A DNA stretch of 33,970 bases from Psammoneis japonica (taxonomy: Eukaryota): assembly GCA_008632985.1 (NCBI GenBank), contig QPGO01000036.1, forward strand, positions 582,182-616,151, written 5' to 3'. A program made the translations under genes and the position numbers. Positions 1 to 33,970 of this stretch are shown piece after piece; the first letter of the stretch is position 1, and every line of letters begins with the position of its first letter. The notes beneath the pieces were generated by a model. The model was not told where the DNA came from, ran no database searches, and was given only the letters and a program-made list of their open reading frames with translations.

Positions 1-1576
1 TACCATCATCTGGAAACCTCAATAAAAAATAATAACTTTCAGAAGAGCACCAGCATCATACTATACCGCCATCGTGTTGCACTCGCTCGCTCCGCTCCGG
101 TTACAGTAGAGCGAGAGCATACCATACGGTAGATAGCTGGGCCTACTCTCTCTACTCTAGTAGCTACTGCTACTCTCTAGAGTAGAGCTTGTACTGTAGA
201 GAGTAGGACCGTAGCTGCTAGAGTAGCAGCAGCTCTGCGTGATGGCACTTCTTCATGGAGCGGGCGGGCGCCAGGGGCTGCAGAGCTTCTCTGCCGACTG
301 GGCATCTTGTGCAGGAAACCAAGGGACATCACCATCATAGGATCTTGGGGCCAATGTCACAATGGCCTGTTGAAAGTGAGCGTGTGCCAAGTCTTTCCCC
401 ATTGACAGATGAAGATTGTCGAGCGGGGTGAGCAACATGGGGGCAGCTGCAGAGGCATTCACACAACTCAAGAGCTTGCTGTCACAGGACCAGACAACCC
501 ACTCCAGCCAAAGGCAGGGCTCCATGTGATGTGGTCCCACAGATTCCATGTGCAAGCTCTGCAGCTTGCAGCCCAGTCAATGGATGCATTCATCATTTTT
601 GACACACTCAAGTGAAGAACAACCAACAAGGCACCACTTCACAGCTCACAGATGTTGAAGAGTGGCTTTGCATGCAAAAATGTGCCAAAAGTTGTTGAGT
701 GGACAGCCCAACAACTGTGCTGCAAGGTGGCACAAAATTCCACCAAAGTCAAGCAGAAATGCAAGTACACGACATGTGGCACATGCTGATGGGGCAAAAA
801 AAAACACCAACATGTCACAGACCAGCAGCACAGGCCATCCCACCCAGAGCTGGAGCTTGTTGAAAATGAAGCCAAGAGATGGAGGGCATTTTTGTTGAGC
901 CACTGTTGTTGCAGTGAGAAAGTTTGGATGAGGGTTCTTGCACACTGTCAACAACATGTGGAAAGGTCAATGGACACTTCTTGTGATGGTTTTCAAGTGG
1001 ACGTGGTGCTGCTGTGGTCAGTGCACAAAAGAGCCAGAGCTGATTGCTCTGTTTGGGTTTGCCCATGTGTCTTGCAAGCTGTGCAGCAGGCACCATGGGT
1101 TTGTGTGAGTGCATCTTGCCATCATTTTTTCTCAAGTTTTAGTGCAAAAATGTGCGGTGGAGTGCATTGACTCCCATGGCAATGACAGCTCTTGCACTCT
1201 TTGTGCACGCAGAACCCGCCACATGGCACATGGCAAGCACCAATTCCATCTGAAGTGGCAGGTTGAAAATTCACAAAACCATGCCAACTTCAATGAAAGC
1301 CACTGTTAAGTTGGCTGATGCATGATGGAATTGGCATGTCAGCAGTGCTGTCAAAAAAGCAGCAAGAAAAGTCCAACATGACAGAGAGCTGGTGTGTGTC
1401 ACTCACTCAACTTGTGCACCAATCTCTTTCTTCTCTGGCCAATCCTCTCCATCATCTCATGTGCTGGGGGGTGCATTCCAGACACAGGTGGGAATCAATC
1501 TGTGTGACATTGGGCCAGCAGAATTCCATGTGCAAGCTCTGCAGCAAAATTGTTGGGCAATGAATGTGTCAACGAC

Positions 1577-1596
1577 AGACCATTTTGCATGGAAGA
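1577..1596 (+). repeat. Left terminal inverted repeat (mutated copy)
   Basis: Reverse complement of 6276-6295 except one CG->TG change. Confidence 0.9.
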
Positions 1597-1687
1597 AGGC
1601 CAGACAAAGTGGGGTGCGTGGAAGATTTTGGCCTCAAACTGCACCACGGGGACACAAAGCCACAAAGGACAGAACATTTGCATTGTC

Positions 1688-4200
1688 ATGGGAGTTCATA
1701 GTTTGCCACACCCCTGCTGCCATGTGGAAGGTTCAACAACTTTCTCAAGAGAAGCCACGAGCTTGGTCTTCAAGGAAAAGTGACTGGCTTTGACGTTGCC
1801 AGACTTTTGCACATGTGTGCCCGACAACGCATGCATGCATGCACAAATGGAGACTGCGGCCCTTTGTTGCAGGACTTTTCTTTGACATTGAATTGTCTCA
1901 CCAGAATGTGTGGTCTTGGTGATGAGCTCTTTGTGGCTTTCAATGGAAGAGACTCTGAATGGAAGAGGCACGAACGTGCCACAAGAGACAATGCCAACTC
2001 TGCCTCAGACAAGAGGAACAACAGCACACAAAATGAACCTCTGTGTGTTCTTGTGACCACAAGAAGGTTTGCAACTCCTTCATGGTGTCTTCCATCAGTC
2101 TGTTGCACCAGAGGAGGCAGACTCACAGCTTTGGCACCATCCTGTTGCTGTCAAACAGAAGTGGTCATTTCTGGAGACTCTGACATGCTTGCATTTGGGC
2201 ACAAGAAACTGCTGATTGTTGACTCCTGTCACACTGAGAGTGTCTGCCTCCATGGCATGGAGAGTGACAGCATGAAAAGAGCTTTGTCAGAAGGCAGCAA
2301 AATGACTGCATTTCCTTGTGCTTGCCTTTCCTTTCTTGGTCACTCAGTCTTTCAGATCTTTGGCACTCTTTGTTGTGGGTGTGATGGCACACCCAATCAA
2401 TCTGGTGTTCCGGGTGTTGGCAAGCAGCAAGCAGAAGACAGCTCTAGAAATTTTCAGTGCACTCATTGATGAGGAATCCTGCAAGGAATCTGGCAACCCA
2501 CCAGAATTGAATGTCAATTGAGAAGCAAGCATCAATCAAGAAGCAGCAGCATCTTTGTCTTTGCAATGAGTGGCAGAATGCACACTTTGAAGTGACGAGC
2601 TTGATGACACATGGACATGCAATGGGGTTTCCATGTGTGTTGCTGTTGCAACTGAGTGCTTTTCTGAATGGGCCGTTTGTTGTGATTGCAACTGCAATGT
2701 CAGGCAACTCAATGGAAAACTTGTGATGCCAAGCATGGTCATGACAAGGAAACACGCCACTGGAGAAGTTGTGCCTCGTGGTGAGCTCTCAGAACATGAT
2801 TCCAAGAATCTTGCTGCATTCAACCCACACAACCACTTTTACACAAATCATGGCTGTCTAAGAACAAGGTTGCTGATTGCTGTCTTGAAGAGGACAAGCC
2901 AGAGCAATGCAATGTTGTGCAGTTGAGGAGCTTCCTGAATGCTCGTGGAGCCAACACCAAGACAATCTCCAGAAAGATGACTTGGCAAAGTGCACAAAAG
3001 GCTTTGTCTTTCTTGAGGCAGAGGCACCTCATCTCATCCAAGCTTTCAACTGGGACAAAAGAACCTCTGGTTCTTTCTTTGTCATTGTCACTGAAGACCT
3101 GTGAGTGAAAATTCATGAACCACTTGAGAATCTCATGACTGCGGATTTCTTTCAGAGAAAAGAACACAACAAATTGAAGTGCAAGTTTTGAAAGCATGCC
3201 ATGATCTTTGCTCCAGGGGAAAGTTTCTTGCCAAGTTTGAAGACATTGCAGTTGAGAGCCCTGAACTTGCTGATTCTTTTGTTCACAAGTGCTGTGGCCA
3301 CGTTGGTGAAAGCAAGCACCAGAAGACCATCAGCACGGCCCTCCAATGGGTTCTGGATTGTGGATTGCCAGGAACTAAAGCTTGGCATGATTGCATTCTC
3401 AGATGACAAGACAAAACTTCATGTGCCATCTGAACAATTGGCATCCATGAGCAAGAATCAGAAAGAGAGGGCAGAAGAAGGTGAGTGAAAAGCACTCTGC
3501 CTGCACCTCATTCTCATGGTGTTGCAAGTTGAGCCAACTGCCCAAGCAAAAGATGGGCACAATCTTGGGTGCATTGTTGGAGTGATTGAAAGCCATTCTT
3601 GTGCTTTGTGCACTGCTGGTTTTGGCCAATGCACACACCATTGCTGCTGTGCACTCCACATCCAGCACCATCATTGGGGTGAAGAGAGAAGCACTCCCAA
3701 GCCTGTTGCAATGGGCAAATGTTGCTGGATTGCAGGAAATCAGCAATGTCAGCATGGCGCAACTCAGGGAGTTTCAGAAATGCAGCTCTGTCAAGCTCCA
3801 AAGACAGAAGAGGAAGCTGAGAGATGTGCCTTGAGGATGCATGGAGAAACATCAACTTGGGTGTCGGACCTCATTGTGAAATGCATGGCAACAATGCAAG
3901 CTGTCAAAGAATGCTGGATTGGAGGCATTTTTCTGAGGACAACCCAGTGGTGCAAGCTCTGTTCAAGCATCTCAGAACAATGCAATGAAAAAGCCAGACT
4001 GGCTGCTTTTGGTCAAATGTGTTCCAGAAACACAGCTGCCAGGGGTTGTCACACAGCCAGTCTGCAGTTCCAGTGCATTTGTTGTGCATTGTGCTCCTCT
4101 CTGAGTTTCTGAAGCCAGTCTTCATGAATTGCCATCTCACCAACATTGACCAACAACTTTTCTGGCTCTTGTTCCGCTGGCTCCGCAAACATCTTGTGCT
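1688..4200 (+). pseudogene. Transposon accessory gene remnant: XPG/FEN1/EXO1-family 5' nuclease, SAP-like motif, SWIM zinc finger
   Basis: Motifs in order across frameshifts: MGVHSL (1688), GFDVARLLH, FVAFNG..WKRHERATR, VAPEEADSQL (~2102-2131), VVISGDSDMLAFG, H3TH-like GCDGTPNQSGVPGVGKQQA, QLRSFLNARGANT..KDDLAK (~2917-2990), SCALCTAGFGQCTH..CAL..CCW (~3595-3730). The 3' end is approximate. Confidence 0.8.
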
Positions 4201-4329
4201 CACTTGTCATGCTCCAAAGGTGAACCTGTCCATGCACATCCACCAAACCATCATCTGCAGCACCACACCAGCAAATGCAGGCTTGGCAGGGATGTTGTCT
4301 GTGGCTTCCATTGATGCAATGCATTGACT

Positions 4330-6210
4330 GCCCACGGGTGATGGCAGGATGAAAGTTCTGCACAAGGAAACACACCCGCATCAACAACAGAGCCAGGTTG
4401 AGCTGAAGCAGTGGGGCGACACTGTTGAAGCATCTGCCTGTCATCTTCGCATGCCTGCCACCTGTTTGATGACAATTCTTGCATTCCCAATCTTCTGGCA
4501 GGGAGCCGCATCCTTGCTTGGCCATTGAGTCTGTGGCTTCAGTTTCTCAGTGGGGCAGATGCACATGACTCCTGACAATGCACACAGATTGTCAATGAGA
4601 AACCCCTTGTCCACCTGGACTGCATGCCCAAATGGCACATTTTCAATTGGTTTGAAAATGTTGGGGCAGATTGAATCCCCACAACTGCCAGCCGCTCCAT
4701 CTTTTGGCAGAGAGCCTTCATGCGTGCATCCAATGGGGTCAGAGCCACCAAAGAACTTCATTGTGTCCCTGCCCTTGTGCTCAGAATGCATGGTGGCATG
4801 CCCTGTCTTCATGCAGGACATCTGTGCCTCCTCCTCTGTGGCATCAAGAATGAGGAAAATAGAAGCATGCCCAAAGGCCCAAACAAATCCAGTCTGGAAA
4901 AACAGCCCACTGCCAAATGATGTCTGAAACAATGGAAGCAGCTTTGATTCCAACAAGTGGGGCAATTGCTTCCTTCTGAGCTGATCCAACATGACAGTGA
5001 AGACAGAAAACAAAACACTCTGTTTTTCAATCAATGACCTGTGCTTTTGGTTCAGTTGAGTGTGCAGTGGGTGGCTCAACATCACCCTTGTGTTCCCCCA
5101 GTCTAACCTTGCTGTGACACTCCAGTCCTCATGCAAGACCCGGATTGCCATCTTCTTTCTTCCAGCTCAGCACACTTTTCAAGGAAGTGCTCATCAGCTT
5201 TGAAATTGGGGAAAAAGGCCAGGTGCAAGGTCCTTGCATGACAGAGGAGCTTGCTGAGACAGATCTTCTGGCTTGCCATGTGTGCACTCTAGCTTGACTC
5301 CAATTCAGAAATCTTCAACATCTCCACTGTGTTCCCTTGCTGATCTGCAGCTCTGATGCAGAGCTCTCCCATCTCATTGTCTTTGTCAGATGGCTTTTTC
5401 TTCAGATGCTCTGCCACTTCATTCATGTGCTCTACCTCCAACTTTTTTCCCTCCAATTCTTTGTTGCAACTGTGGGCTTGAGCTGTCATTGCCATGGTGT
5501 GCTTCTCTGCTGGCACTCTTTCAATGGAAGATGGGGCACCAGCATCTGGACGAGTGACAAACTTCTTGGCTGCTCTTGACCTGGCTGTTCTCAGTGCATT
5601 GCTGACATTGTTAAAAGGATTGGAACTTTCAGGCCTTGAAGTGTTGCTGCCAGGACCATTTGTCTTCATGTCGTTCCTCTTGGCGTGTCTCTCTGCCACC
5701 AGCACCCACAAGCAGCCCAAACCACTCTGACAAGTCTGATGCCACAGTGCCAGAGAAGACACTTTCCACCGCTCTTGGGACCACACCTTGCACCTTTGCT
5801 TTTCCATCTCTTTGTGTGACTCAACTTTGCAGTTTGGAGGGGGGAAGCCAGTTTTTCTTTCCCCCAATCTCGGAATGTCGCATTGCTGTTGTGCGGATTC
5901 AGGCACCAGCACTTGTCCGACACATCAAAATGCCAATGTTCAGGATGAAAATGCCATGGTGCAATCACCTGACTGTGTGGATCATTCAAAAAACTTTCTC
6001 TCAATGCTCAGGTTTGACTCCAAGAGCAGTCATGACATTTGCGACAAAATTGTTGGGCACACGCACCATGTGAGATGAAGAACACCCCATTCCGTGACAA
6101 AAGGTGTTGTCACAAATGTGCAAGATTTCCTTCCTTTCGCGTTTTCGGGTCTCATGTGTTGTGGACCAAGAAGAAAAGGACCTTTACCATCGGGGGCGAC
6201 TGGAAACCAT
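4330..6210 (-). pseudogene. DDE_Tnp_4-type (ISL2EU/Harbinger-like) transposase remnant
   Basis: LILDATE, HATMHSEHKGRDTMKFFGGSDPIG (family pattern tYSxYKxxxTxKfLxGxxPxG), VQVDKGFLID, KIGNARIVIKQ and RVCFLVQNFHPAI. The N-terminal part has a C-x4-C...HF (THAP-like) segment and a coiled coil. Several stops and frameshifts; ends approximate. Confidence 0.88.
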
Positions 6211-6275
6211 GACTGCCGATGAAACACGCATCTACAGGTGTCGCTCGGGGTTGTGTCCGCCTTGTGCGTCTGTTC

Positions 6276-6295
6276 TCTTCCGTGCAAAATGGTCT
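6276..6295 (-). repeat. Right terminal inverted repeat (retains CG and flanking TA)
   Basis: Reverse complement reads agaccattttgcacggaaga; followed by AT. Confidence 0.9.
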
Positions 6296-6365
6296 ATTTT
6301 ATACTCTAGCTTTCGCATTTCGCACCGTATTCGTATTATTTTTGCATGCTCCATGCCATCTCACC

Positions 6366-7502
6366 ATGAGCCGCCGTCATTCACCGCCGTACAAGACAAG
6401 AGGCCTTGAAGATGAAAGCGACGATTCCATGTTGTTGGATGCTCTTCGCGGCTTGAACTTGCCAAATATGCCCAGCTCTAGCAAGGAAACCCCAACAATT
6501 CGGATACTGGCAGTTGCCGATGTTGATTTGCCGAGTGCGGCGGCTCTTGCCGAGTATGCACTACGAAAAGACGACAATTCCATTGGCGGAGGTAATGTAG
6601 ACTTATGTATAGCTTGTGGATCTTTCTGTAGTGACGACAACCTCCTGACAAATCCCAGATACTTGGAAGGTCGTTCTCGACAACGTATGGAGCACAGATT
6701 GGCAGGAGCTTCGGGCAACATTGCACACACGAGAGCTTTGCGGACGCGAGAAGAATCAGCAGCATTAGAAGGACTGGTCTCAGCAACTCTGTCACAACTA
6801 GAAAGCATTGTATGTCGATTGGTATTTATTCCTGGTCCCAATGATCCGATTTCGATAATCTCGCAGCCACCAAACACACCGCCTCGCCGGCTTACATCCA
6901 ACGCACGTAACGTTCATCGGCACTGGCTGCAGCTAACACCGGGGCTTGGCTGTGCTGGATTGATGGACGAAACGAGTATTGAACCAGATGCGGAGGATGA
7001 TGGTACTGGCTATATAGAAGCTGCGTCACGATTGTTGGAGTTGGCAAACCCAAACGAGCAGCATTACTCAAGTCACCCATCCTTATTAGCTTTTGACACC
7101 CCCTTGTCACAAACTATACTATTGACAGAACCATCACCACCTTCAAGAGAAGTACAACATGACGATACAAGTAGTAGAAATAGCTACAAACATGGTGGTG
7201 AGAGTCTCAATGATACGGATCTCTTTCCCCGAGAGTTCTTGCGGTTCATCGATGCTCCAGCAACTCAAAGCCAAGTTCTTGTCAATGTCTCTTCTGGAGA
7301 CGAACCATACCTAAGCCAACGGGGTAATGTATCATTGATTATACCAGGGTCCTTGCGAAAGAGTGGTGATTTCTGTCTGATAAATGTCGGACTCTGCCGA
7401 AATGACAATGCTACTAGTGACGTGTCGACTGGGTGCTCCTCCTACAACTGGAGAGTCAATCGAGTGGAATTTCGAAACATGAGGGAGGGGTCAAGTACTT
7501 GA
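6366..7502 (+). CDS. Uncharacterised protein, probable degenerate calcineurin-like metallophosphoesterase fold (378 aa)
   Basis: Long clean ORF of normal composition. ILAVADVD, DLCIACGSF and LVFIPGPNDP resemble the DxH, GDxx and GNHD blocks. ATG 6366 chosen because the upstream part of the ORF lies in the transposon end. Confidence 0.8.
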   Translation: MSRRHSPPYKTRGLEDESDDSMLLDALRGLNLPNMPSSSKETPTIRILAVADVDLPSAAALAEYALRKDDNSIGGGNVDLCIACGSFCSDDNLLTNPRYLEGRSRQRMEHRLAGASGNIAHTRALRTREESAALEGLVSATLSQLESIVCRLVFIPGPNDPISIISQPPNTPPRRLTSNARNVHRHWLQLTPGLGCAGLMDETSIEPDAEDDGTGYIEAASRLLELANPNEQHYSSHPSLLAFDTPLSQTILLTEPSPPSREVQHDDTSSRNSYKHGGESLNDTDLFPREFLRFIDAPATQSQVLVNVSSGDEPYLSQRGNVSLIIPGSLRKSGDFCLINVGLCRNDNATSDVSTGCSSYNWRVNRVEFRNMREGSST

Positions 7503-7921
7503 AGCTCGAAATACCGACATTTGGGAAGGAAAGTTGAATATGAACGAGTACGAACGCAGAAGATGGTGTCGGGGGATACTGTTTCTGACGAAGGGGAGTC
7601 AAGCTGGCGTTGCGACAACGACGAAGACGATTTTTTCGACGCTTAGAAAGCTTGCCTGCGGGATGAAAAAAACATGTGACGATTCTCAAATTCGAAGGAT
7701 AGAAAAAATATGACATAGAAAAATGTATTGCATCGCCAACATTGCGAATTGAGCATGCGGGTGTGTGTCTGCCAGTATCACTAGAGCGTCACCGTATGAT
7801 GCAATAATTAACGATGGTTTCTGTTGTTGCATCATGGCTTTTCGACAGAGTATAATACCAAATGAAGAACTATTGTTCTATAATTGTTGAAATGCCCCCC
7901 TCTCTCTCCAGCATCTCTGTC

Positions 7922-10900
7922 TTACCTACTACTGCAAGAGCCCGTATTGGGATTTCCTGTCCATTTGCAATTCGTGCACGCGGTGCAATCGTCTTTGATG
8001 GTAATCGACGTACATGATGCACATCCGGTGGGTGCTGAGACGGGGCTCTGGGACGGAGCTGGCGTAGTCGGTGTCGGTGGAGAAGGGCTCAGGCAGAGAC
8101 TTCCCGAGCCTTGCCAGGTGCAAGAGCTTGGGCCACAATAGGATCTGCACGGGCCGCCCCCAGCACCATCCGCATCACGGCAGTTGCAAGCCACCGGGCT
8201 GGCGGAAGGTGCCGGAGTAGGAGTCTTTGTTGGAGCAGCAGAAGGCGCCGGAGTGGGACTCTTGGTCGGAGCAAAGGTAGGGCTCTTTGTTGGAGCACCG
8301 GTGCCACCTGATGTAGGGGCAGCGGTAGGACTCTTGGTTGGAGCGCCGGTTGGAGCCTTTGTTGGCGCTGCGGTGCCGCTTGGAGTTGGAGCAGGTGACG
8401 AGGAAGACAACAGAGTGCAGAGAACTGGACGAACACCTTCACCAGCAGCTTCGGTAGACCAATACTTGTACACACTGGTACCATCCAAAGCATAGATGGC
8501 CAAGGATACCTGTGAGGCTGCAATGTTTGCGTTGACGAGCGAGGTGAGGTCAAAATCAACGGGATCATTCCTGACCGTTGGTGATGCCCCAGTGGCGATT
8601 GGGCCACCGACTGTTGCCGCCCCGGGCGAGTCCCAAGTGGAGGTGCCTGCCGACCAATTGTTATTGTCTAGCTCGTAAATGGCTGTAGTGACGCTTCGGT
8701 CAGCACCGTCGGTGTAACCAAAGAGACGAAGAGTAGCGTACTCGACAGAACTCGTGACGCCGCTAACGTCAAACTTTATGAAAGTTTGTCGAATGTCTCC
8801 AGCGACTGCCTTTGTATCAATTCTGTCGGACCCAGCGTAATTATTGGTAGGATTGGCTTCACGGATGGTGGTATCTTCCAAAGCACCCGTACACACTTCG
8901 AACGGACCAGAATCAGGGGACCTTGTCGGCATGTCAGTAGGCGAATTCGTCGGAGGCTCCGTAGGCTGGGGAGTTGGGGTCAACGTGTTTCCTGCCAACA
9001 CTGCTTCGACTCTGAGCAAGGCCACGTGGGTGGTAGTGCCGTCGCTCACCTCAAGCTGCAGCTGGTACACTCCATCCGTGCTGAATGATGCCGTTGTTTC
9101 AATCGCTGTCGCGTCCGCAATAGTAGCCACGCCAGGCCCAGACACTTGGCTCCAGGTGTAGCTATGCGAGTTTCCTAGCATTGTCAGGTCACGAACAATA
9201 CCACCAATGCCAAAGGACGTACTGGGCTCCGGTGGGTACGCGTCTTCGTCCTTGAACGTGATCAAGGGATCCAAGAACAGTCCATTCCCATACCAATTTG
9301 CCAGTTCCGTCCACACATCGCCCCACAGTTGATCCGGAAGCACAACATGACGAAGCGCATTCTGGCTGTTCAACCGATCTTTGAGTTGCGCATAATAGAG
9401 GGATCGGGGCGTCACGTGCTGCCCAATCGACCTCCAGAGACCGTTCTTTTCCACAATCGAGGAGTTGGTGTGCGGACCAATGTTTCCAACCGCCCAGTTC
9501 ATGGCGTTATTGGGAGCATCATTATTGAATGTCCCTTCGCAATTCCAAAACATGATTTGCGCACCACTCCAGCCGTGGCCAGATCCGGAGTCTCCTCGAT
9601 TCCGAACGCGTATCTGGCCGTTATTACCAAACGTGTCGAGAGTTTTGATGTTATCGTAGAGCTGTCCTGTTGCGTACCTATGATGAGGCCCAATGTCCGC
9701 ATTGGATAGAGTCGCCAGGGAGTCGACAAAGACATTGGGTCCCGGCGTGCGAGACCCAGAGACGTAGTCATGGCGGCCTTCGGAAGTGAGGCATCGATGA
9801 AAAAAGACAAAGTCAGAGTCGTCCACGTTGAAGGAGTAACGGCGGCCTCCCGAGATTGGGCTCTTGTGTTCAAGCATGGCGGAATCTTCGACAGTAATAT
9901 AGCTGGAATGCGATTGAACCGAGACCAAGCCATACCCAAAATACTTTCCTGTGACTTGACGAACCCACGAGTCGCGTACACCTTCAAATTCAATACCTTT
10001 CCAGCCGTGATTTTCGTCCGTGCTGGAGGCAAACGAAGATTCCAAGCGGATGTTCTCAACTCCAACATTGTAGATCTCGTTCTTCTGATAGGCATAGACA
10101 TCCGCACCACCGTACAAGACGGTATCAATGGCCTGGACAACGGGGGCATCAATCTCAATCTGATCGCCAATGACGCTTTCTACTTTGCGACGCCAAATGA
10201 GCTGACAGTAAAAGACCGAGAAACAGTTAGAAAACATGGCAAAGTCGCTATGCGACATGTGGTAGTCTACATGATTCTCTCACCTGATAGCTTTCCGTGG
10301 TCCATCCATACAGACCCATGTTGGACATTTCATCAAGCCAGGCTTGATTTGGCGTGAGCTTGATGGCAATCTCATCACCCTCAGTGAAACCATGACCCGG
10401 AGTGACGGTGAATGTCTTGGCTCCCGTGGGAACAAAGTTATCGGCAACTTGTACGGTTGCTCCCGACGCCACGGGTGAACTCGTGTCTCCAAGAATGTTA
10501 ATCATGGAACTCTTGACATTGCTCGTGTAGGTCACATTTGTTCCTCCTACGCCGGAGCCTTCGCCACGAAGGACAACACCACTTGCCGTGATGGAAAGCT
10601 GATTAAAGACCTCGTAGTCGCCTGCCTTCAAGAGTACGGCACCACGAAACCCATCGACCAACGGAAGCCCTGATACAGTATTAATTGCGTTTTGAATCGC
10701 GGTTCCATCATCACCGGGACCGGGATTCACCTGTCGCAACAAGAGAAGGAAATTAAGAGTGAGATGACTCGAGTTACAGTTATGAAACAGAGTAGTGCAC
10801 GAGAAATTTAGCTCAGGAGTCATTCTTGCTTCTCACATACCGTCGCTTGTGTTGGAACAAAGGGGATCGCAACGCCACCACCTTTATAGCCCACGTTTGA

Positions 10901-11125: not shown

Positions 11126-11519
11126 CTTGAAAGGTGTTACTGTACTGATTTATGCCTTAGCCTTATGCCTCCATCGATGATGTCTTTTTTCTTTATTTTG
11201 ATTTTTTGGACGGCGCCACGGCCGGCCGGCGGCGGCAGATTAGATTCCGCTTGTATGTACGAGCATTACGTAGAATGTACGTGTATTGAAGTACAATCTT
11301 ACAGTGTACGTATAAGTCTCTCGAAGCAGGCAGATACAGTAGTGTATTTATTGCCTTCTTTTATCTGGCATGATCAATACTTAAATAATAAATGACATTG
11401 GAAAAATGGTATTTATTGACGGTCATTAGACGATTGTCATGACAGAGACAGGAAGGACGTGTGTTGGTGTCTGTCGCTAGCAGGCTTAGGGCCCTCTACT
11501 GTAGGTTTACGGTGGCTCA

Positions 11520-13290
11520 GCATTGGCATGCACGACACCCAAGGATTTGTGAGTCTGTCAATCCTTGCTTACATCTGATCTGCTCTCCAATGGCAGCAGC
11601 TCTAGCTGGCTGGCAGAGAGGGGGATGGGGGCTCCCCAGTTTATTTGTGTGGAGCATGTGGGTTGTGAGCCACTGCCAGTTCGCACTGCGACACTCTCAC
11701 TTGGTGCTGCCGTCTTTGTCTGAGAGCCTGGATTCTGAACTCGAGAAGGACAAAAAGAACAGAAAGTGCTGGCACTATGGCTTCATCATGCAGACTGCAA
11801 GAGTTTGCAATTGTTGCAACAAGCACCTTCGTGTGTGGTTTGAGGCCGCGTGGTGTGTCTCATCGCTTTGTTGGTCCAGCCGTCTTCTGGTGCGGCCGGG
11901 AGCAGGTCTTTTCTCTCTTGAGGAACCTGTTCAATGAAAATCAAACAAGACATCTCTCTGACAAGATTGTGCTCTCTCTCTTTCTTGCACACAACAACAG
12001 GCAGGGCTGTCCAGGCACCAAGTGGAGTGTTGGTTTAAAGCAGCACACAGCGGCGCTTGTTGCTGCAGAAGATTCAAGCACAAAATGTGGTGCGCTGCCA
12101 GCAAGAGTGTTGCTCTTCTTTAGGCACCAGCTCTGGCAAACTCACAATGAGAAATTCCTGTCAGCCTGCTGCTTCCCATCTTGTTCCCCACTTGTTCTTT
12201 CTCCACTGGCTTGCCGGCCGCTTTGCCTGCGCTGCTTGTGCAAAAGCCACGCAACCTTTTGTCATGCTGCAAAACTCTCTGCACACCTGGCAAGTGTTCC
12301 TGACACAGCAATGCTTCCATTTTTGCAAAACCATGACAGGAAACTGTTTTGGCTGGCAAAAACGCTGACAACTTCAAATGCGCCAAGTCCGTCATTGAGT
12401 TTTCAAGCAGCCCTCAAAGCTGAACCCAAAACATCAAATGCAAAGATGTGTGTGATTTGTGAAGTGTGACAAGCTGCAGGCACCACAAAGATTCTGCTGT
12501 CTCGGCTCCTCCTCTTGCGCACAAAAGTTGCCGATTGTCACCAACAAAAGCACAGCAGGCAGTGGAAGACCTTGGTTGTTCAGACTCAACCCACCCATTT
12601 GGAGCTGCCAAAATGCTGGATTGATGGACAAAACAAGCGTTGAGACAGATGCAGAGGACAACTGCACTGGCCACACCAAAGCAGCATTGTGATTGTCAGA
12701 GTTGGAAAATCCAAACAAGCAGCACTGCTCAAGTCACCCATCTTTGGCTTTTGACAACTCCTTGTGACACAAACCACACTGCAGACTGAACCATTGTGAC
12801 CATCACGAGAAGCAAAACATGCCGGTGCAAGTGACAGAAACAGCTGCGCTGTTGTTGTGAAAGTCTCAATGACACAGATCTCTTTCCCCGCAAGCTCTTG
12901 CAGCTCATCAATGCCCCTGCAACTCAAAGCCAAGTCATTGTCAATGTCTCTTCTGAAGATGAACCACACCCAAGCCAATGGGGAAACACGGCATTGATTG
13001 TGCCCCAGAGGGTCCTTGCAAAAGAGTGGTGACTTCTTCTGTCTGGCAAATGCAGGACTCTGCCGAAATGACAATGCTGCCAATGATGTGCTGACTGTGT
13101 GCTCCACCTGCAGTTGGAGAGTCAATCAAGCAGAATTTCGAAACATGAGGGAGGGGTCAAGCACTTGAAGCTCGAAATGCCGACATTCACCATGAGCAGC
13201 AAGAATGCTTGGGGAAGGAAAGTTGAAAGATGGAGGAGTGCGAATGCCGCACGCATTGTGCATTGTGCTTGGAATGAGATTCTGATGAAA
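11520..13290. other. TpA-void, CpG-poor hypermutated domain 2 (unidentified repeat remnant plus duplicated gene fragment)
   Basis: About 6 TA in 11520-12125 and none seen from there to ~13295. Confidence 0.92.
12614..13247 (+). pseudogene. Mutated partial duplicate of the 3' half and 3' flank of the 6366-7502 gene
   Basis: Collinear with 6953-7557, e.g. tgctggattgatggac, ctcaagtcacccat, gatctctttccccg, actctgccgaaatgacaatgct, gaatttcgaaacatgagggaggggtcaag; small indels and stops. Confidence 0.95.
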
Positions 13291-24199: not shown

Positions 24200-25500
24200 C
24201 AGCATGCATCACCACCGCCCAACCCGACTTCCATGCAGAAGCGCCGCTTGCGTTCAGCATGTTGATTGAAGATGATGTGCCACAGTTGGCTGACGATTGC
24301 AAGGAGCAATTGTCAGGTGTGGCTTTTGCAGGAACCGGATGTTGTGATCGTGGCATGTTTGGAGTCGAGACGAAAAAGGAGTCCAGGAAGAGAAGAAGCA
24401 CTGGCATCATTTTGACAGTTGTTGGATGTGCTCAGCTCTGGACATCTCCATTCCATTGATTGTGGTTTGCAGTGGCTGCATGGAGAATGGCTCTGTTGGC
24501 TTCACAGGCAGTTCTTCAACACCAAAAAAGAAAAAAACTGCTTCAAACTTTTGGACAGATCACAAGAAGTGGTGGTTGATGAGAAGATTCTCTCACAAGA
24601 TCTCCAAGTGTTGCACAATTCACTCACTCCCTTCTCTGCCTCCAATCTTGGAAAATGCTGAAGTGGCAACTCTCTCCAGCAACCGCCCCTGAGAGTTCAC
24701 ACAGTGCCCGTGTTGGCTTGTGATGTGCGCCAAGCAATTTTTCAAGCTCTGGTGGCAGTTTCTCAATCAAGTCTTTCTCAAAGTCCTTGGCAGCATCATT
24801 GCCCCCATGCTGGCAACATGTTGAGTGGATCTTGGAGCCAACCACACACGGCTGCCACAAGTCGCTCCCCAAAATCATCATCTGTGCAGCCCTCGTGTTG
24901 GCTCCTGCTGCTCTGAGAGAGTGTCATTTTCAACATGCTGCAGCAGCTGACAATGACACTGCCCCATGCCTTGCATTCATCCAACCACCATCAGCTGCAA
25001 CTCGAGCTGGCCCAAAACCCAAAACACCGCCACGCCGCCACCAGCAAAAACCCCGGTGTGCAGAGCTGTGGCAACAAGGTGAGTGGGTGGACTGGCAGAA
25101 GGCACAAGAAAATGGGCAAATTCTGTTGCACTGCTTGTTGAGTGCATGCACTCCGCAGCCACAGCTGAAATGTTGTGACGGTGATCACTTCTTTTGCCAG
25201 CTGACTTGCAGCACCTGATCCGAGGGTGGCTCCAAAGTTTCGAAGAAAGCTCTGAGGGCCCTCCAATCTCTTTTTTTCTGTGCAACAAATTCTGCATAAT
25301 TTTCAACTGAGTTCTGAGTGCAACTTGTTTTGAGGCATCACTGATGATGGGATGCTCGCGAGGAGTGAGGATGTCTTTTCTGGATCTTTGCCGTTTGCCT
25401 GATCTTTGCGACCTCGTCAAGACTGAACAAGACCTCGCGAAACTTCGAGATGATGCGCGATGGCGGTGCGCCGCAGCTTTCCGTCCCAGCTTCGTGATGC
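24200..25500. other. TpA-void hypermutated domain 3 (unidentified repeat remnant)
   Basis: Only one TA seen (~25297) in ~1.3 kb; CpG is depleted in the core but retained at both edges. Confidence 0.92.
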
Positions 25501-33159: not shown

Positions 33160-33369
33160 GGTCAACTCATATTCTGGCCGCTGCTTTTTTTGTTGTGTTG
33201 CGCGGATCTTCTGTCGCCGATCCAGGCCAGGCGCGCATCTATCGCGCATCCAACAAGATTGTCTGTCTGGCGAAATCCAGTCGAAGAGTGCAGAAGAAAA
33301 GCCAAAGATGAGCATCGCCGTGATGAAATTCAAAATTGGCAAAATGGCTCAATGAGAGCACAATTGAAC

Positions 33370-33970
33370 TAAATCAGAAAGGTCACAAATTCATCATCAT
33401 CATGTGAGCCCAGTGCAAGCACGTGTGGTGCATGGCACCGCAGATTCTGCTGCTCTTGACGGAGTGGCACACATCGCCTCTGGCGCTCAACCCCCGCCTG
33501 CTTGCCAGCCACCACTTGCATTTTAGCTGGCAACAGGGCCTTGTCATTCATGCAAATGGAGCCAGGGGACTGTCACAAAACTCCTCATCTCCAGACCCGG
33601 GTCATCTGCTTGGAGTTTTCGCAAAACAAGCAAAAGGAAGAAGTTCTCACAAAAGTGTTGCCACATGCGGCCCTTTCAAACCCAGCCTTCTTCTGGCCAC
33701 ACCATTTCCCTGAACTCATTTTTCTTTTCTCAACCACTGGGACTCTGCAAACCCACTTGCTCTCTCTTTTTAATGTGCTGCTCCCCATCTTGCTCCTGTT
33801 CTTCTCTCTCCATTCTTTTTGTCTCTCTTGCTCACACTCTTTTTTCTCTTTTCTGGCGCACTTCCAACTTTCCACATTCACTCAAACTGACCCACAACAC
33901 CTTCATTGATGTCTTGAGATTCCAACAAACTTCCCTCAGTTGTGTTTGCCCATCATCATCTGACCAAAAC
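33370..33970. other. TpA-void, CpG-poor hypermutated domain 4 (runs off the window)
   Basis: 3 TA in 600 bp (ctaa, ttag, ttaa); TG/CA excess. Confidence 0.9.

Follow-up and report, generated by a model that had tools for sequence, protein, structure and literature searches.

DNA transposons of the ISL2EU group, which belong to the PIF/Harbinger-ISL2EU-Spy (PHIS) superfamily, have been defined by a 2-bp AT duplication (target A/AT/T; PMC4482050), a transposase that combines DDE, HTH and THAP parts, and a second gene encoding a YqaJ protein (PMC4482050, PMC9179366, PMC4122938), and the role of this second gene has been described as an open question (PMC4482050). In Harbinger elements, the second gene encodes a Myb/SANT DNA-binding protein and the target-site duplication is a 3-bp TWA (PMC4482050). 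Here we describe a 4.7-kb DNA transposon at positions 1577-6295 of a 33,970-nt stretch of DNA from Psammoneis japonica (GenBank assembly GCA_008632985.1, contig QPGO01000036.1, positions 582,182 to 616,151 of the forward strand), hereafter called the window. Two convergent genes fill this unit, which is bounded by terminal inverted repeats (TIRs): a DDE_Tnp_4-type transposase gene on the minus strand and, on the plus strand, a gene for a putative XPG-family nuclease resembling EXO1. The locus is best explained as a decayed cut-and-paste PHIS transposon with 20-nt TIRs, a probable 2-bp AT duplication and these two genes, and we put the probability of this explanation at about 0.8.

The element resembles ISL2EU (PMC4122938, PMC4482050) in that a DDE_Tnp_4-type transposase is paired with a gene for a predicted 5'-to-3' nuclease, the flanks are compatible with an AT duplication, the length is a few kb and the TIRs are short. 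It differs from ISL2EU in that the nuclease is of the XPG/EXO1 type (PIN-like) and not YqaJ (PD-(D/E)xK), no THAP part was detected, and the hosts are marine protists and not animals. With PIF/Harbinger the element shares the transposase superfamily (DDE_Tnp_4 together with an HTH_Tnp_4-like part) and the two-gene organization, whereas neither a Myb/SANT second gene nor a TWA duplication was found in the window. Because the THAP and YqaJ features of ISL2EU and the TWA and Myb features of Harbinger were all missing, we filed the element within the PHIS superfamily and, by its probable target and the kind of its partner, tentatively nearest to ISL2EU.

Accessory nucleases are already known in DNA transposons. 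Kolobok elements carry a lambda-exonuclease-like protein (KolobokE), a DEDDh nuclease (KolobokD) or a His-Me finger nuclease (KolobokP), showing that DDE transposons have repeatedly recruited a second nuclease of varying fold (PMC9587614); their transposase superfamily and nuclease folds are different from those in the window, and the available parts of that paper name no XPG type among them. AcademX encodes a nuclease and AcademH a helicase (PMC10045372), and AcademX is, like the present element, a eukaryotic DDE transposon with its own accessory nuclease, but belongs to another transposase superfamily and makes duplications of 3-4 bp (PMC10045372). The available parts of PMC4482050, PMC9179366, PMC4122938, PMC9587614 and PMC5718144 ascribe no nuclease other than YqaJ to ISL2EU. 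The pairing of an XPG-type nuclease with a Harbinger/ISL2EU-type (PHIS) transposase was not found in the literature searched, with Repbase, Repbase Reports and supplementary files lying outside that search, and nothing relevant appeared among the literature matches listed for a transposon with FEN1, EXO1 or XPG. The nuclease of the AcademX lineage (Kojima 2020) is reportedly of the XPG type. The pairing was found in marine metagenome contigs as well as in the host of the window. New with this window are the pair at independent loci in metagenomes, a TIR element that has AT flanks and only the nuclease gene, and a clear case of TpA/CpG hypermutation that destroyed an element of this kind.

Ends and genes of the element

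The left and right arms of the TIR pair share the general form AGACCATTTTGCA(C/T)GGAAGA, and they differ in a single place, where the left arm has CA and the right arm CG. Within 1000-7000 this is the only 20-nt inverted pair with at most one mismatch, and dinucleotide-preserving shuffles of the same interval yielded any such pair in only 1 of 200 cases. An earlier note made from the letters of this DNA had placed, within a single TIR pair, a minus-strand DDE_Tnp_4-type transposase converging on a plus-strand nuclease gene, and this arrangement was borne out by the TIR match and by the colinearity of both genes with their relatives in tblastn. About 60 nt separate the two genes, and therefore no third gene fits between them; no tRNA gene or Rfam family was found in the window. 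The features of the element are listed below.

1575-1576, no strand: left flanking dinucleotide AC; junction ..GAC/AGACC
1577-1596, plus strand: left TIR, AGACCATTTTGCATGGAAGA, 20 nt; complement of the right arm at 19/20 positions (95%)
1688-3988, plus strand: pseudogene of a putative EXO1-like XPG-family nuclease, about 765 amino acids (aa) if intact; from tblastn, colinear with the related proteins P0008 and P0036
1688-2421, plus strand: putative nuclease core with XPG-N, XPG-I and helix-3-turn-helix motifs
1688-1702, plus strand: MGVHS motif
1786-1812, plus strand: GFDVARLLH motif
1933-1953, plus strand: FNG in place of the FDG of the family
2105-2128, plus strand: APEEADSQ motif
2170-2199, plus strand: SGDSDMLAFG motif
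2377-2421, plus strand: GCDGTPNQSGVPGVG
2920-2958, plus strand: SAP-like stretch QLRSFLNARGANT, which aligns with ELKAMIGARGG of relatives
3600-3641, plus strand: zinc-knuckle-like C-x2-C-x6-C-x-H, CALCTAGFGQCTHH, followed by HHHWGEER at 3666-3689
4049-6293, minus strand: pseudogene of a DDE_Tnp_4 transposase, comprising a Cys-rich N-terminus, a middle region of low conservation, a part resembling HTH_Tnp_4 and the DDE core
4459-4851, minus strand: catalytic core; the two Asp lie in ILDATEE (4851-4831) and VQVDKGF (4620-4600), and the catalytic Glu has become Lys in RIVIKQV (4479-4459)
6049-6245, minus strand: Cys-rich N-terminal region, CRC..QSWFP, ICDNTFCHGMGCSSSHMVRVPNN, ending about 50 nt short of the right end
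6276-6295, minus strand: right TIR, TCTTCCGTGCAAAATGGTCT as read on the plus strand
6296-6297, no strand: right flanking dinucleotide AT, then T; junction GGTCT/ATT; probable target-site duplication

The motifs of the nuclease stand on the plus strand in the expected order, as the earlier note had read them, and are distributed over three frames. In tblastn, window positions 1714-3973 were colinear with residues 9-758 of P0008 (segment-set E values of 5e-19 and 3e-43), which represents a 767-aa protein family whose members (P0008, P0036, P0007 and P0025) are about 715-770 aa long. When the 255-aa frame at 1702-2469 was compared with 1.84 billion representative proteins, 22 proteins matched at E <= 1e-3, the top one at 1.1e-16. 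The XPG-N and XPG-I regions expected of the XPG/Rad2 family were recovered through relatives that exceed the Pfam cut-offs, with 27.4 bits for XPG_N in P0008 (cut-off 22); for XPG_I (cut-off 24.9), P0004 scored 28.4 bits and P0036 scored 33.5 bits. Among solved structures, the family profile matched human EXO1 best (3qea, E 1.6e-15), followed by Rad2 (2e-8), XPG (1e-7) and FEN1 (8e-5). Positions 1-171 of the family align with positions 1-184 of the EXO1 catalytic domain, including the first D and the FDG, EADxQ and DSDLL motifs; unlike human EXO1, to which identity is about 30% at most, the family has its own C-terminal part of about 480 aa and is transposon-borne. The acidic residues D33, D81, E136, D138, D158, D160 and D249 were invariant in 7/7 sequences of the nuclease alignment (A1), and all of these except D249 line up with the corresponding EXO1 motifs, in which they match residues that we take to be the catalytic residues of EXO1. 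Six of the seven are retained in the window, D81 being replaced by Asn. Relatives of the nuclease were found neither in viral contigs nor in contigs of 185,579 prokaryote genomes. From these comparisons, the N-terminal third of the protein would be an EXO1-like 5' nuclease of the XPG/Rad2 family, and the rest would consist of a SAP-like stretch and an invariant Cys/His knuckle.

The colinearity with P0008 extends through this second part of the protein, spanning the SAP-like stretch, a motif SPE...GH(I/V)GES, and the knuckle followed by HWGE.R. Residues C122, C125, G128, C132, H134 and W146 were invariant in 10/10 sequences of the C-terminal alignment (A3), and since the knuckle is both colinear with P0008 and invariant in this way, the Cys/His motif is not an artifact of TG/CA-rich composition. 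The family motif reads C-x2-C-x6-C-x-H, as compared with the SWIM signature C-x-C-xn-C-x-H, and the resemblance to SAP (ELKAMIGARGG...K.DL) was judged by eye. "SWIM" and "SAP" are motif resemblances and not Pfam domain memberships. The C-terminal part of about 480 aa had no PDB match at E <= 0.01, and the AlphaFold2 model of the C-terminal 246 residues, built from a 10-row alignment, had a mean predicted local distance difference test (pLDDT) score of 43.7. By language-model features, the nearest neighbors (0.86-0.94) of the C-terminal 238 residues of P0008 were clusters of animal proteins, with SWIM present in 11% of the cluster members and Viral_alk_exo in 13-15%. No YqaJ match was obtained at E <= 0.1 in the 12 open reading frames (ORFs) of the element, out of 14 window ORFs scanned against Pfam, or in the relatives at E cut-offs of 0.01, 1 and 10, in agreement with the earlier note, which had seen no YqaJ motifs. 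In addition, no match to Myb/SANT, the second-ORF feature of PIF/Harbinger, was found.

On the minus strand, window positions 6001-4091 were colinear with residues 24-683 of the 690-aa protein P0026 (tblastn E 9e-91), and P0039 and P0040 extended the match to 6245, the N-terminal region aligning with residues 1-31 of P0039 and residues 50-89 of P0040; P0041 also matched in tblastn. The frame at 4441-5166 was 54-61% identical to three metagenome DDE_Tnp_4 proteins, P0001-P0003, which matched the window in tblastn at E values of 2e-75, 2e-65 and 2e-37. These relatives scored well for DDE_Tnp_4 in Pfam (47-54 bits for P0001-P0003 and P0026, and 69.6 bits for P0039; E 1e-13 to 3e-19), and P0026, P0039 and P0040 carry the triad as D(76-77)D(47)E. 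The intact triad is thus present in the relatives and not in the window copy, which has kept both D residues and has Lys for the Glu. An HTH_Tnp_4-like part scored 21-24 bits in the relatives against a cut-off of 27. The catalytic DDE_Tnp_4 domain and the bounding TIRs, two features of PHIS elements, were accordingly both found, and an intact transposase is predicted to have had about 700 aa or more. As with the nuclease, no transposase relatives were found in the viral contigs or in the contigs of the 185,579 prokaryote genomes.

Decay of the copy and repetition in the source genome

The copy is dead, both genes carrying frameshifts and TGA stops. In the nuclease gene there are 4 frame changes between the tblastn segments and 3 in-frame stops within one segment, with further frame shifts at the MGV start and around EADSQ. 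The transposase segments run through frames -3, -2, -1, -3, -2, -1, -2 and -1 from 6245 to 4091, amounting to at least 7 frame changes. Catalytic residues have changed as well, from D to N in the nuclease (FDG to FNG) and from E to K in the transposase.

The composition of the element is extreme. Over about 400-6080, the observed/expected ratio is about 0.1 for CpG and 0.03 for TpA, and about 2 for TpG and CpA, and the plus-strand frames of this island contain 146 TGA codons against 5 TAA and 5 TAG. Across the segments that align with four relatives, Tyr codons are missing from the window altogether, and the Tyr residues of the relatives face Cys or His in the window at 14/23, 11/24, 9/10 and 9/19 positions. 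Related loci elsewhere are undepleted, with ratios of 0.6-1.2 for CpG and 0.6-1.0 for TpA. For the most part, the decay is what one would expect of a host process that has erased nearly all TpA and CpG into TpG and CpA, and the suggestion that a consensus be rebuilt by reverting TG/CA to TA/CG holds good as a description of the decay. A similar hypermutation of foreign DNA from TpA to TpG/CpA has been reported in the chlorarachniophyte Bigelowiella natans, where the TpA-depleted genes are enriched for, among others, 'DDE superfamily endonuclease' (bioRxiv 10.64898/2026.01.13.699255). The two cases are alike in the loss of TpA to TpG/CpA and in its confinement to foreign or repeated DNA, and differ in that the islands of the window have lost CpG too, which goes unmentioned in the available parts of the preprint (bioRxiv 10.64898/2026.01.13.699255). 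The TpA loss stops at the right TIR, with 2 TpA in 6076-6295 against 9 in 6296-6500. The copy therefore illustrates how a host can destroy such an element by removing TpA and CpG.

Contigs of the probable source sample gave 427 pieces at 80% identity or more on window positions 1-9000; 34 of them were at 99% or above, 44 at 95-99% and 128 at 90-95%, and the remaining 221 were under 90%. The depth summed over these pieces, which is not equal to copy number, ranged from 108 to 390 in the nuclease gene and from 133 to 274 in the transposase gene, and fell at the right TIR from 151.8 (6001-6300) to 59.6 (6301-6600). The contigs differed by 450 transitions and 153 transversions, and their joints reach 6268. 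Both genes are repeated in the source genome, and the repeat stops at the right TIR. Among sequencing runs, the window DNA was matched in the probable source sample only, and no RNA run was among the matches.

Recurrence of the gene pair, alternatives and possible role of the nuclease

When metagenomes were scanned with the nuclease alignment, 13 loci were recovered, including 5 distinct loci with at least 0.8 kb of sequence past the 3' end of the gene, and 2 of these 5 (L001 and L008) carry the transposase or a remnant of it. In L001, the nuclease gene (233-2404, plus strand) is followed by a convergent transposase gene (3914-2451, minus strand; E 3e-98) that runs off the contig, and in L008 there are convergent remnants of both genes, the transposase remnant matching at E 7e-13. 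The pair is thus convergent in relatives that are only 30-40% identical in protein (window, L001 and L008), and because it recurs in L001 and L008 it is not a one-off capture, the outcome that the earlier note had named as fatal to its idea of a distinct lineage. It is suggestive only that a 767-aa nuclease (P0029) and the 693-aa transposase P0039 are each recorded on a contig of 5338 nt. In the diatom Thalassiosira exigua, relatives of the nuclease and of the transposase were both recorded, not on the same contig.

The remaining loci are of a different kind. L002 (the same locus as L007, 99.9% identical) holds at 101-2941 a 2.8-kb element with a nuclease gene only, split into two frames; its inverted repeats are about 240 nt long and 93% complementary over 121 nt, its termini read TGACC...GGTCA and are flanked by AT at either end. 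Next to the left end of this element, and separated from it by TAT, lies a 99-nt copy of its right end that is 100% identical. L004 (3847-6027) and L006 (10001-12181) show the same gene order and an intact 726-aa nuclease gene with no TIRs; in L004 the gene sits among LRR and RING-variant genes, and no transposase was found within 3.8 kb upstream or 4.7 kb downstream. L005 (1478-2734) has a truncated 418-aa copy of the nuclease in a different context, with no transposase. The nuclease genes of L004/L006 and L005 adjoin LRR, RING-variant or IQ genes, and these solitary genes may represent a lineage that is domesticated, viral or mobile on its own. In two short contigs, L008 (37-827) and L009 (561-1544), the nuclease sequence breaks off at about residues 185-195 and continues immediately from about residue 596, which has the look of an internal deletion that recurs or of a naturally shorter form.

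Several results weigh against the explanation that we prefer. The ORFs of the window score below the curated Pfam cut-offs, at 18.4 bits for DDE_Tnp_4 (E 0.0018; cut-off 24.8) and 13.6 bits for XPG_I (E 0.092; cut-off 24.9), so that the assignment of both genes rests on their relatives. The earlier note had recognized SAP-like and SWIM motifs, and the motif stretches are indeed there; no Pfam match to SWIM (PF04434) was obtained in 10/10 family members at E <= 10, and none to SAP (PF02037) in the relatives at E <= 1 or in the 10 members at E <= 10. On the transposase side, P0039-P0042 had no Pfam match to THAP at E <= 1, the transposase profile A2 matched no THAP or transposase structure at E <= 10, yielding coiled-coil noise only, and in the transposase frame the stretch from the TIR to the conserved N-terminal motifs holds no ATG. 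The left flank is AC rather than AT. Self-comparison revealed no second copy of the element inside the window, and the structure of the copies in the host is known from depth and joints alone. The last 220 nt of the element (6076-6295) have kept 13 CpG despite the loss of TpA, the rest of the element having about 1 CpG per 100 nt; since this part has kept CpG yet lost TpA, the two kinds of loss have different borders. Finally, at 3 of the 5 loci (L002=L007, L004, which is probably the same as L006, and L005) the nuclease gene is not accompanied by a transposase, and this bears on the idea that 5' processing is a conserved need of such elements.

The ISL2EU-like label given in the earlier note stands in part: the DDE_Tnp_4 transposase, the TIRs and the AT of the right flank agree with it, and the undetected THAP, the absent YqaJ and the left AC do not. 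The element might instead be a member of PIF/Harbinger in the strict sense, or of a distinct PHIS group, as yet without a name, which acquired its nuclease independently, an alternative that we regard as doubtful and that nevertheless carries real weight. The missing THAP and the HTH_Tnp_4 scores below the cut-off speak for it, as do the hosts, which are protists, ISL2EU having been described in animals (PMC9179366) or in animals and plants (PMC4122938). The flanks, however, are compatible with AT but not with a TWA of 3 bp: on the right AT precedes a T, the left AC is a single T-to-C change at TpA away from AT, and the 3-nt flanks, GAC and ATT, do not make up the TWA duplication of PIF/Harbinger. 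The AT at both ends of the related element in L002, which adjoins another copy, also speaks for AT. Because T-to-C change at TpA is the dominant decay in the island, we read the left AC as a former AT duplication in which the T before the A of the TIR would have changed to C. The second gene, moreover, appears to encode a 5'-to-3' nuclease and not a Myb/SANT protein, and the spacing D(76-77)D(47)E is near the D(79-80)D(44-62)E of Spy, the sister group of ISL2EU (PMC4122938).

As to what the two proteins of a PHIS transposon of this kind would do, the transposase, by analogy with other DDE transposases, would cut and join the 3' ends of the element, and the nuclease may act on the 5' strands at the DNA ends so made, either by 5'-to-3' resection or by removal of 5' flaps, the same chemistry as that of the unrelated YqaJ/lambda-type exonuclease. 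EXO1 and the lambda/YqaJ exonucleases have in common that they resect a DNA end in the 5'-to-3' direction, and for this reason we prefer the variant in which the nuclease would resect the donor break or the excised ends. The C-terminal module of the nuclease may serve to bring it to DNA or to the transposase. When a complex of the L001 transposase with nuclease residues 290-726 was predicted, the score was 0.58, the best of 3 controls reaching 0.29, and the result was graded as weak support; the mark for such scores was reached by 51/78 solved complexes and 2/108 mismatched pairs, and scores of 0.60 or less comprised 5/78 solved complexes and all 4 passing mismatches (of 180). In these predictions the partner was modelled with a pLDDT of 46 or higher, and 16% or more of the contacts agreed between runs. 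A contact between transposase and nuclease is therefore hinted at by the model and not more than hinted at. An unrelated nuclease of the same polarity in the slot that YqaJ occupies in ISL2EU would narrow the role of the second gene to processing of the 5' strand, that is to resection, flap removal or second-strand cutting, and the pairing hints that such elements need a second nuclease. The intact relatives make the question of the role of the second gene testable.

Second-strand cutting is the basis of another explanation, which we consider unlikely. Here the DDE enzyme would nick the 3' ends and the 5' nuclease would cut the other strand at a flap or junction, freeing the element, so that the two proteins would form a two-enzyme transposase in the manner of TnsA and TnsB in Tn7. 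The XPG family does include flap endonucleases, the pair has been kept together in L001, L008 and the window, and the complex score of 0.58 against 0.29 for the best control leans weakly the same way. To our knowledge, how IS5/PHIS transposases cut the second strand is not settled, and this too counts in its favor. However, the solved structure nearest in sequence is that of EXO1, an exonuclease that resects DNA ends, and the YqaJ protein of ISL2EU is an exonuclease of a type that needs a free end. PIF/Harbinger relatives, moreover, transpose with a Myb-like partner and no nuclease (PMC4482050).

A bolder version of the preferred explanation, which we offer as speculation with the odds well against it, is that the ISL2EU-like branch of PHIS depends on a 5'-to-3' nuclease as an obligatory second subunit, and that a YqaJ PD-(D/E)xK nuclease in animals and a PIN-like XPG/EXO1 nuclease in marine protists have been swapped onto the same non-catalytic, SWIM-like C-terminal module, which would dock on the transposase or on the transposon ends. 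The sole hint of a shared module comes from the language-model neighbors of the C-terminal part of P0008, and that of docking from the complex score of 0.58 against 0.29.

The XPG-knuckle protein could also be cargo, that is, a selfish, host or viral gene family outside the chemistry of transposition that was acquired by some PHIS transposons and also lives alone. The intact 726-aa gene of L004 (in the same order as L006), with neither transposase nor TIRs, the truncated L005 copy in another context, and the TIR-bounded L002 with its nuclease gene only are what one would look for in such a case. We find this explanation improbable, however, considering that the pairing persists across relatives 30-40% identical in protein (window, L001 and L008), always in convergent orientation and with no third gene, that the TIRs and AT flanks of L002 resemble those of a transposase-deleted derivative moved in trans, and that no relative of either gene was found in the 185,579 prokaryote genomes or the viral contigs. 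Chance adjacency of a host EXO1 paralogue and a Harbinger-type transposase with a fortuitous 20-nt inverted repeat, for which one might cite the TG/CA-rich, low-complexity sequence and an unrelated 18-nt perfect inverted pair at 1174-1191 and 5480-5497, is hardly credible given the shuffle test (1/200), the depth and TpA loss that both stop at the right TIR, the same pair in L001 and L008, and the conserved C-terminal module of the nuclease family, which is absent from the EXO1 entries in the PDB.

Surrounding sequence and minor observations

The 18-nt perfect inverted pair at 1174-1191 and 5480-5497 (CCATGGCAATGACAGCTC) joins the upstream repeat with the interior of the transposase gene; it matches no border of a gene or element and is possibly due to chance in TG/CA-rich sequence. 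Another right end of the element, near 6060, was suggested by a 15-mer, CAAAATTGTTGGGCA, common to 1545 and 6045, and was dropped because the transposase coding sequence continues to about 6245. To the left of the element, 250-1576 was considered as a second copy and rejected, its six frames giving no significant match (best E 0.16). This region is repeated and TpA-poor, has a summed depth of 78-416 and no Pfam match, and is probably debris of a different repeat that adjoins or encloses the element. Just left of the TIR, at 1499-1572, the summed depth rises to 4973 in the bin 1501-1800, against 59.6 in unique flank; loose contig ends lie at 1499-1503 and 1544-1572, and a 23-nt exact copy is present at 543-565.

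Depletion of TpA and CpG is not confined to the element. Islands at 400-6080, 11500-13200, 24400-25400 and 33300-33970 have observed/expected ratios of 0.00-0.09 for TpA (core bins), 0.04-0.34 for CpG and about 1.5-2.1 for TpG/CpA, and the ORFs of the other depleted islands had no Pfam match. The host genes that lie between the islands (coatomer beta, RING, WD40 and APC4) are compositionally normal. On its right side, the element is followed after about 70 nt by the ATG of a host gene (6366-7502, plus strand) whose product has a weak DNA_pol_E_B-type match (E 1.4e-4, under the cut-off), and the next gene (7922-10279, minus strand) encodes a CBM96, PKD-like, Pro/Thr-repeat protein.

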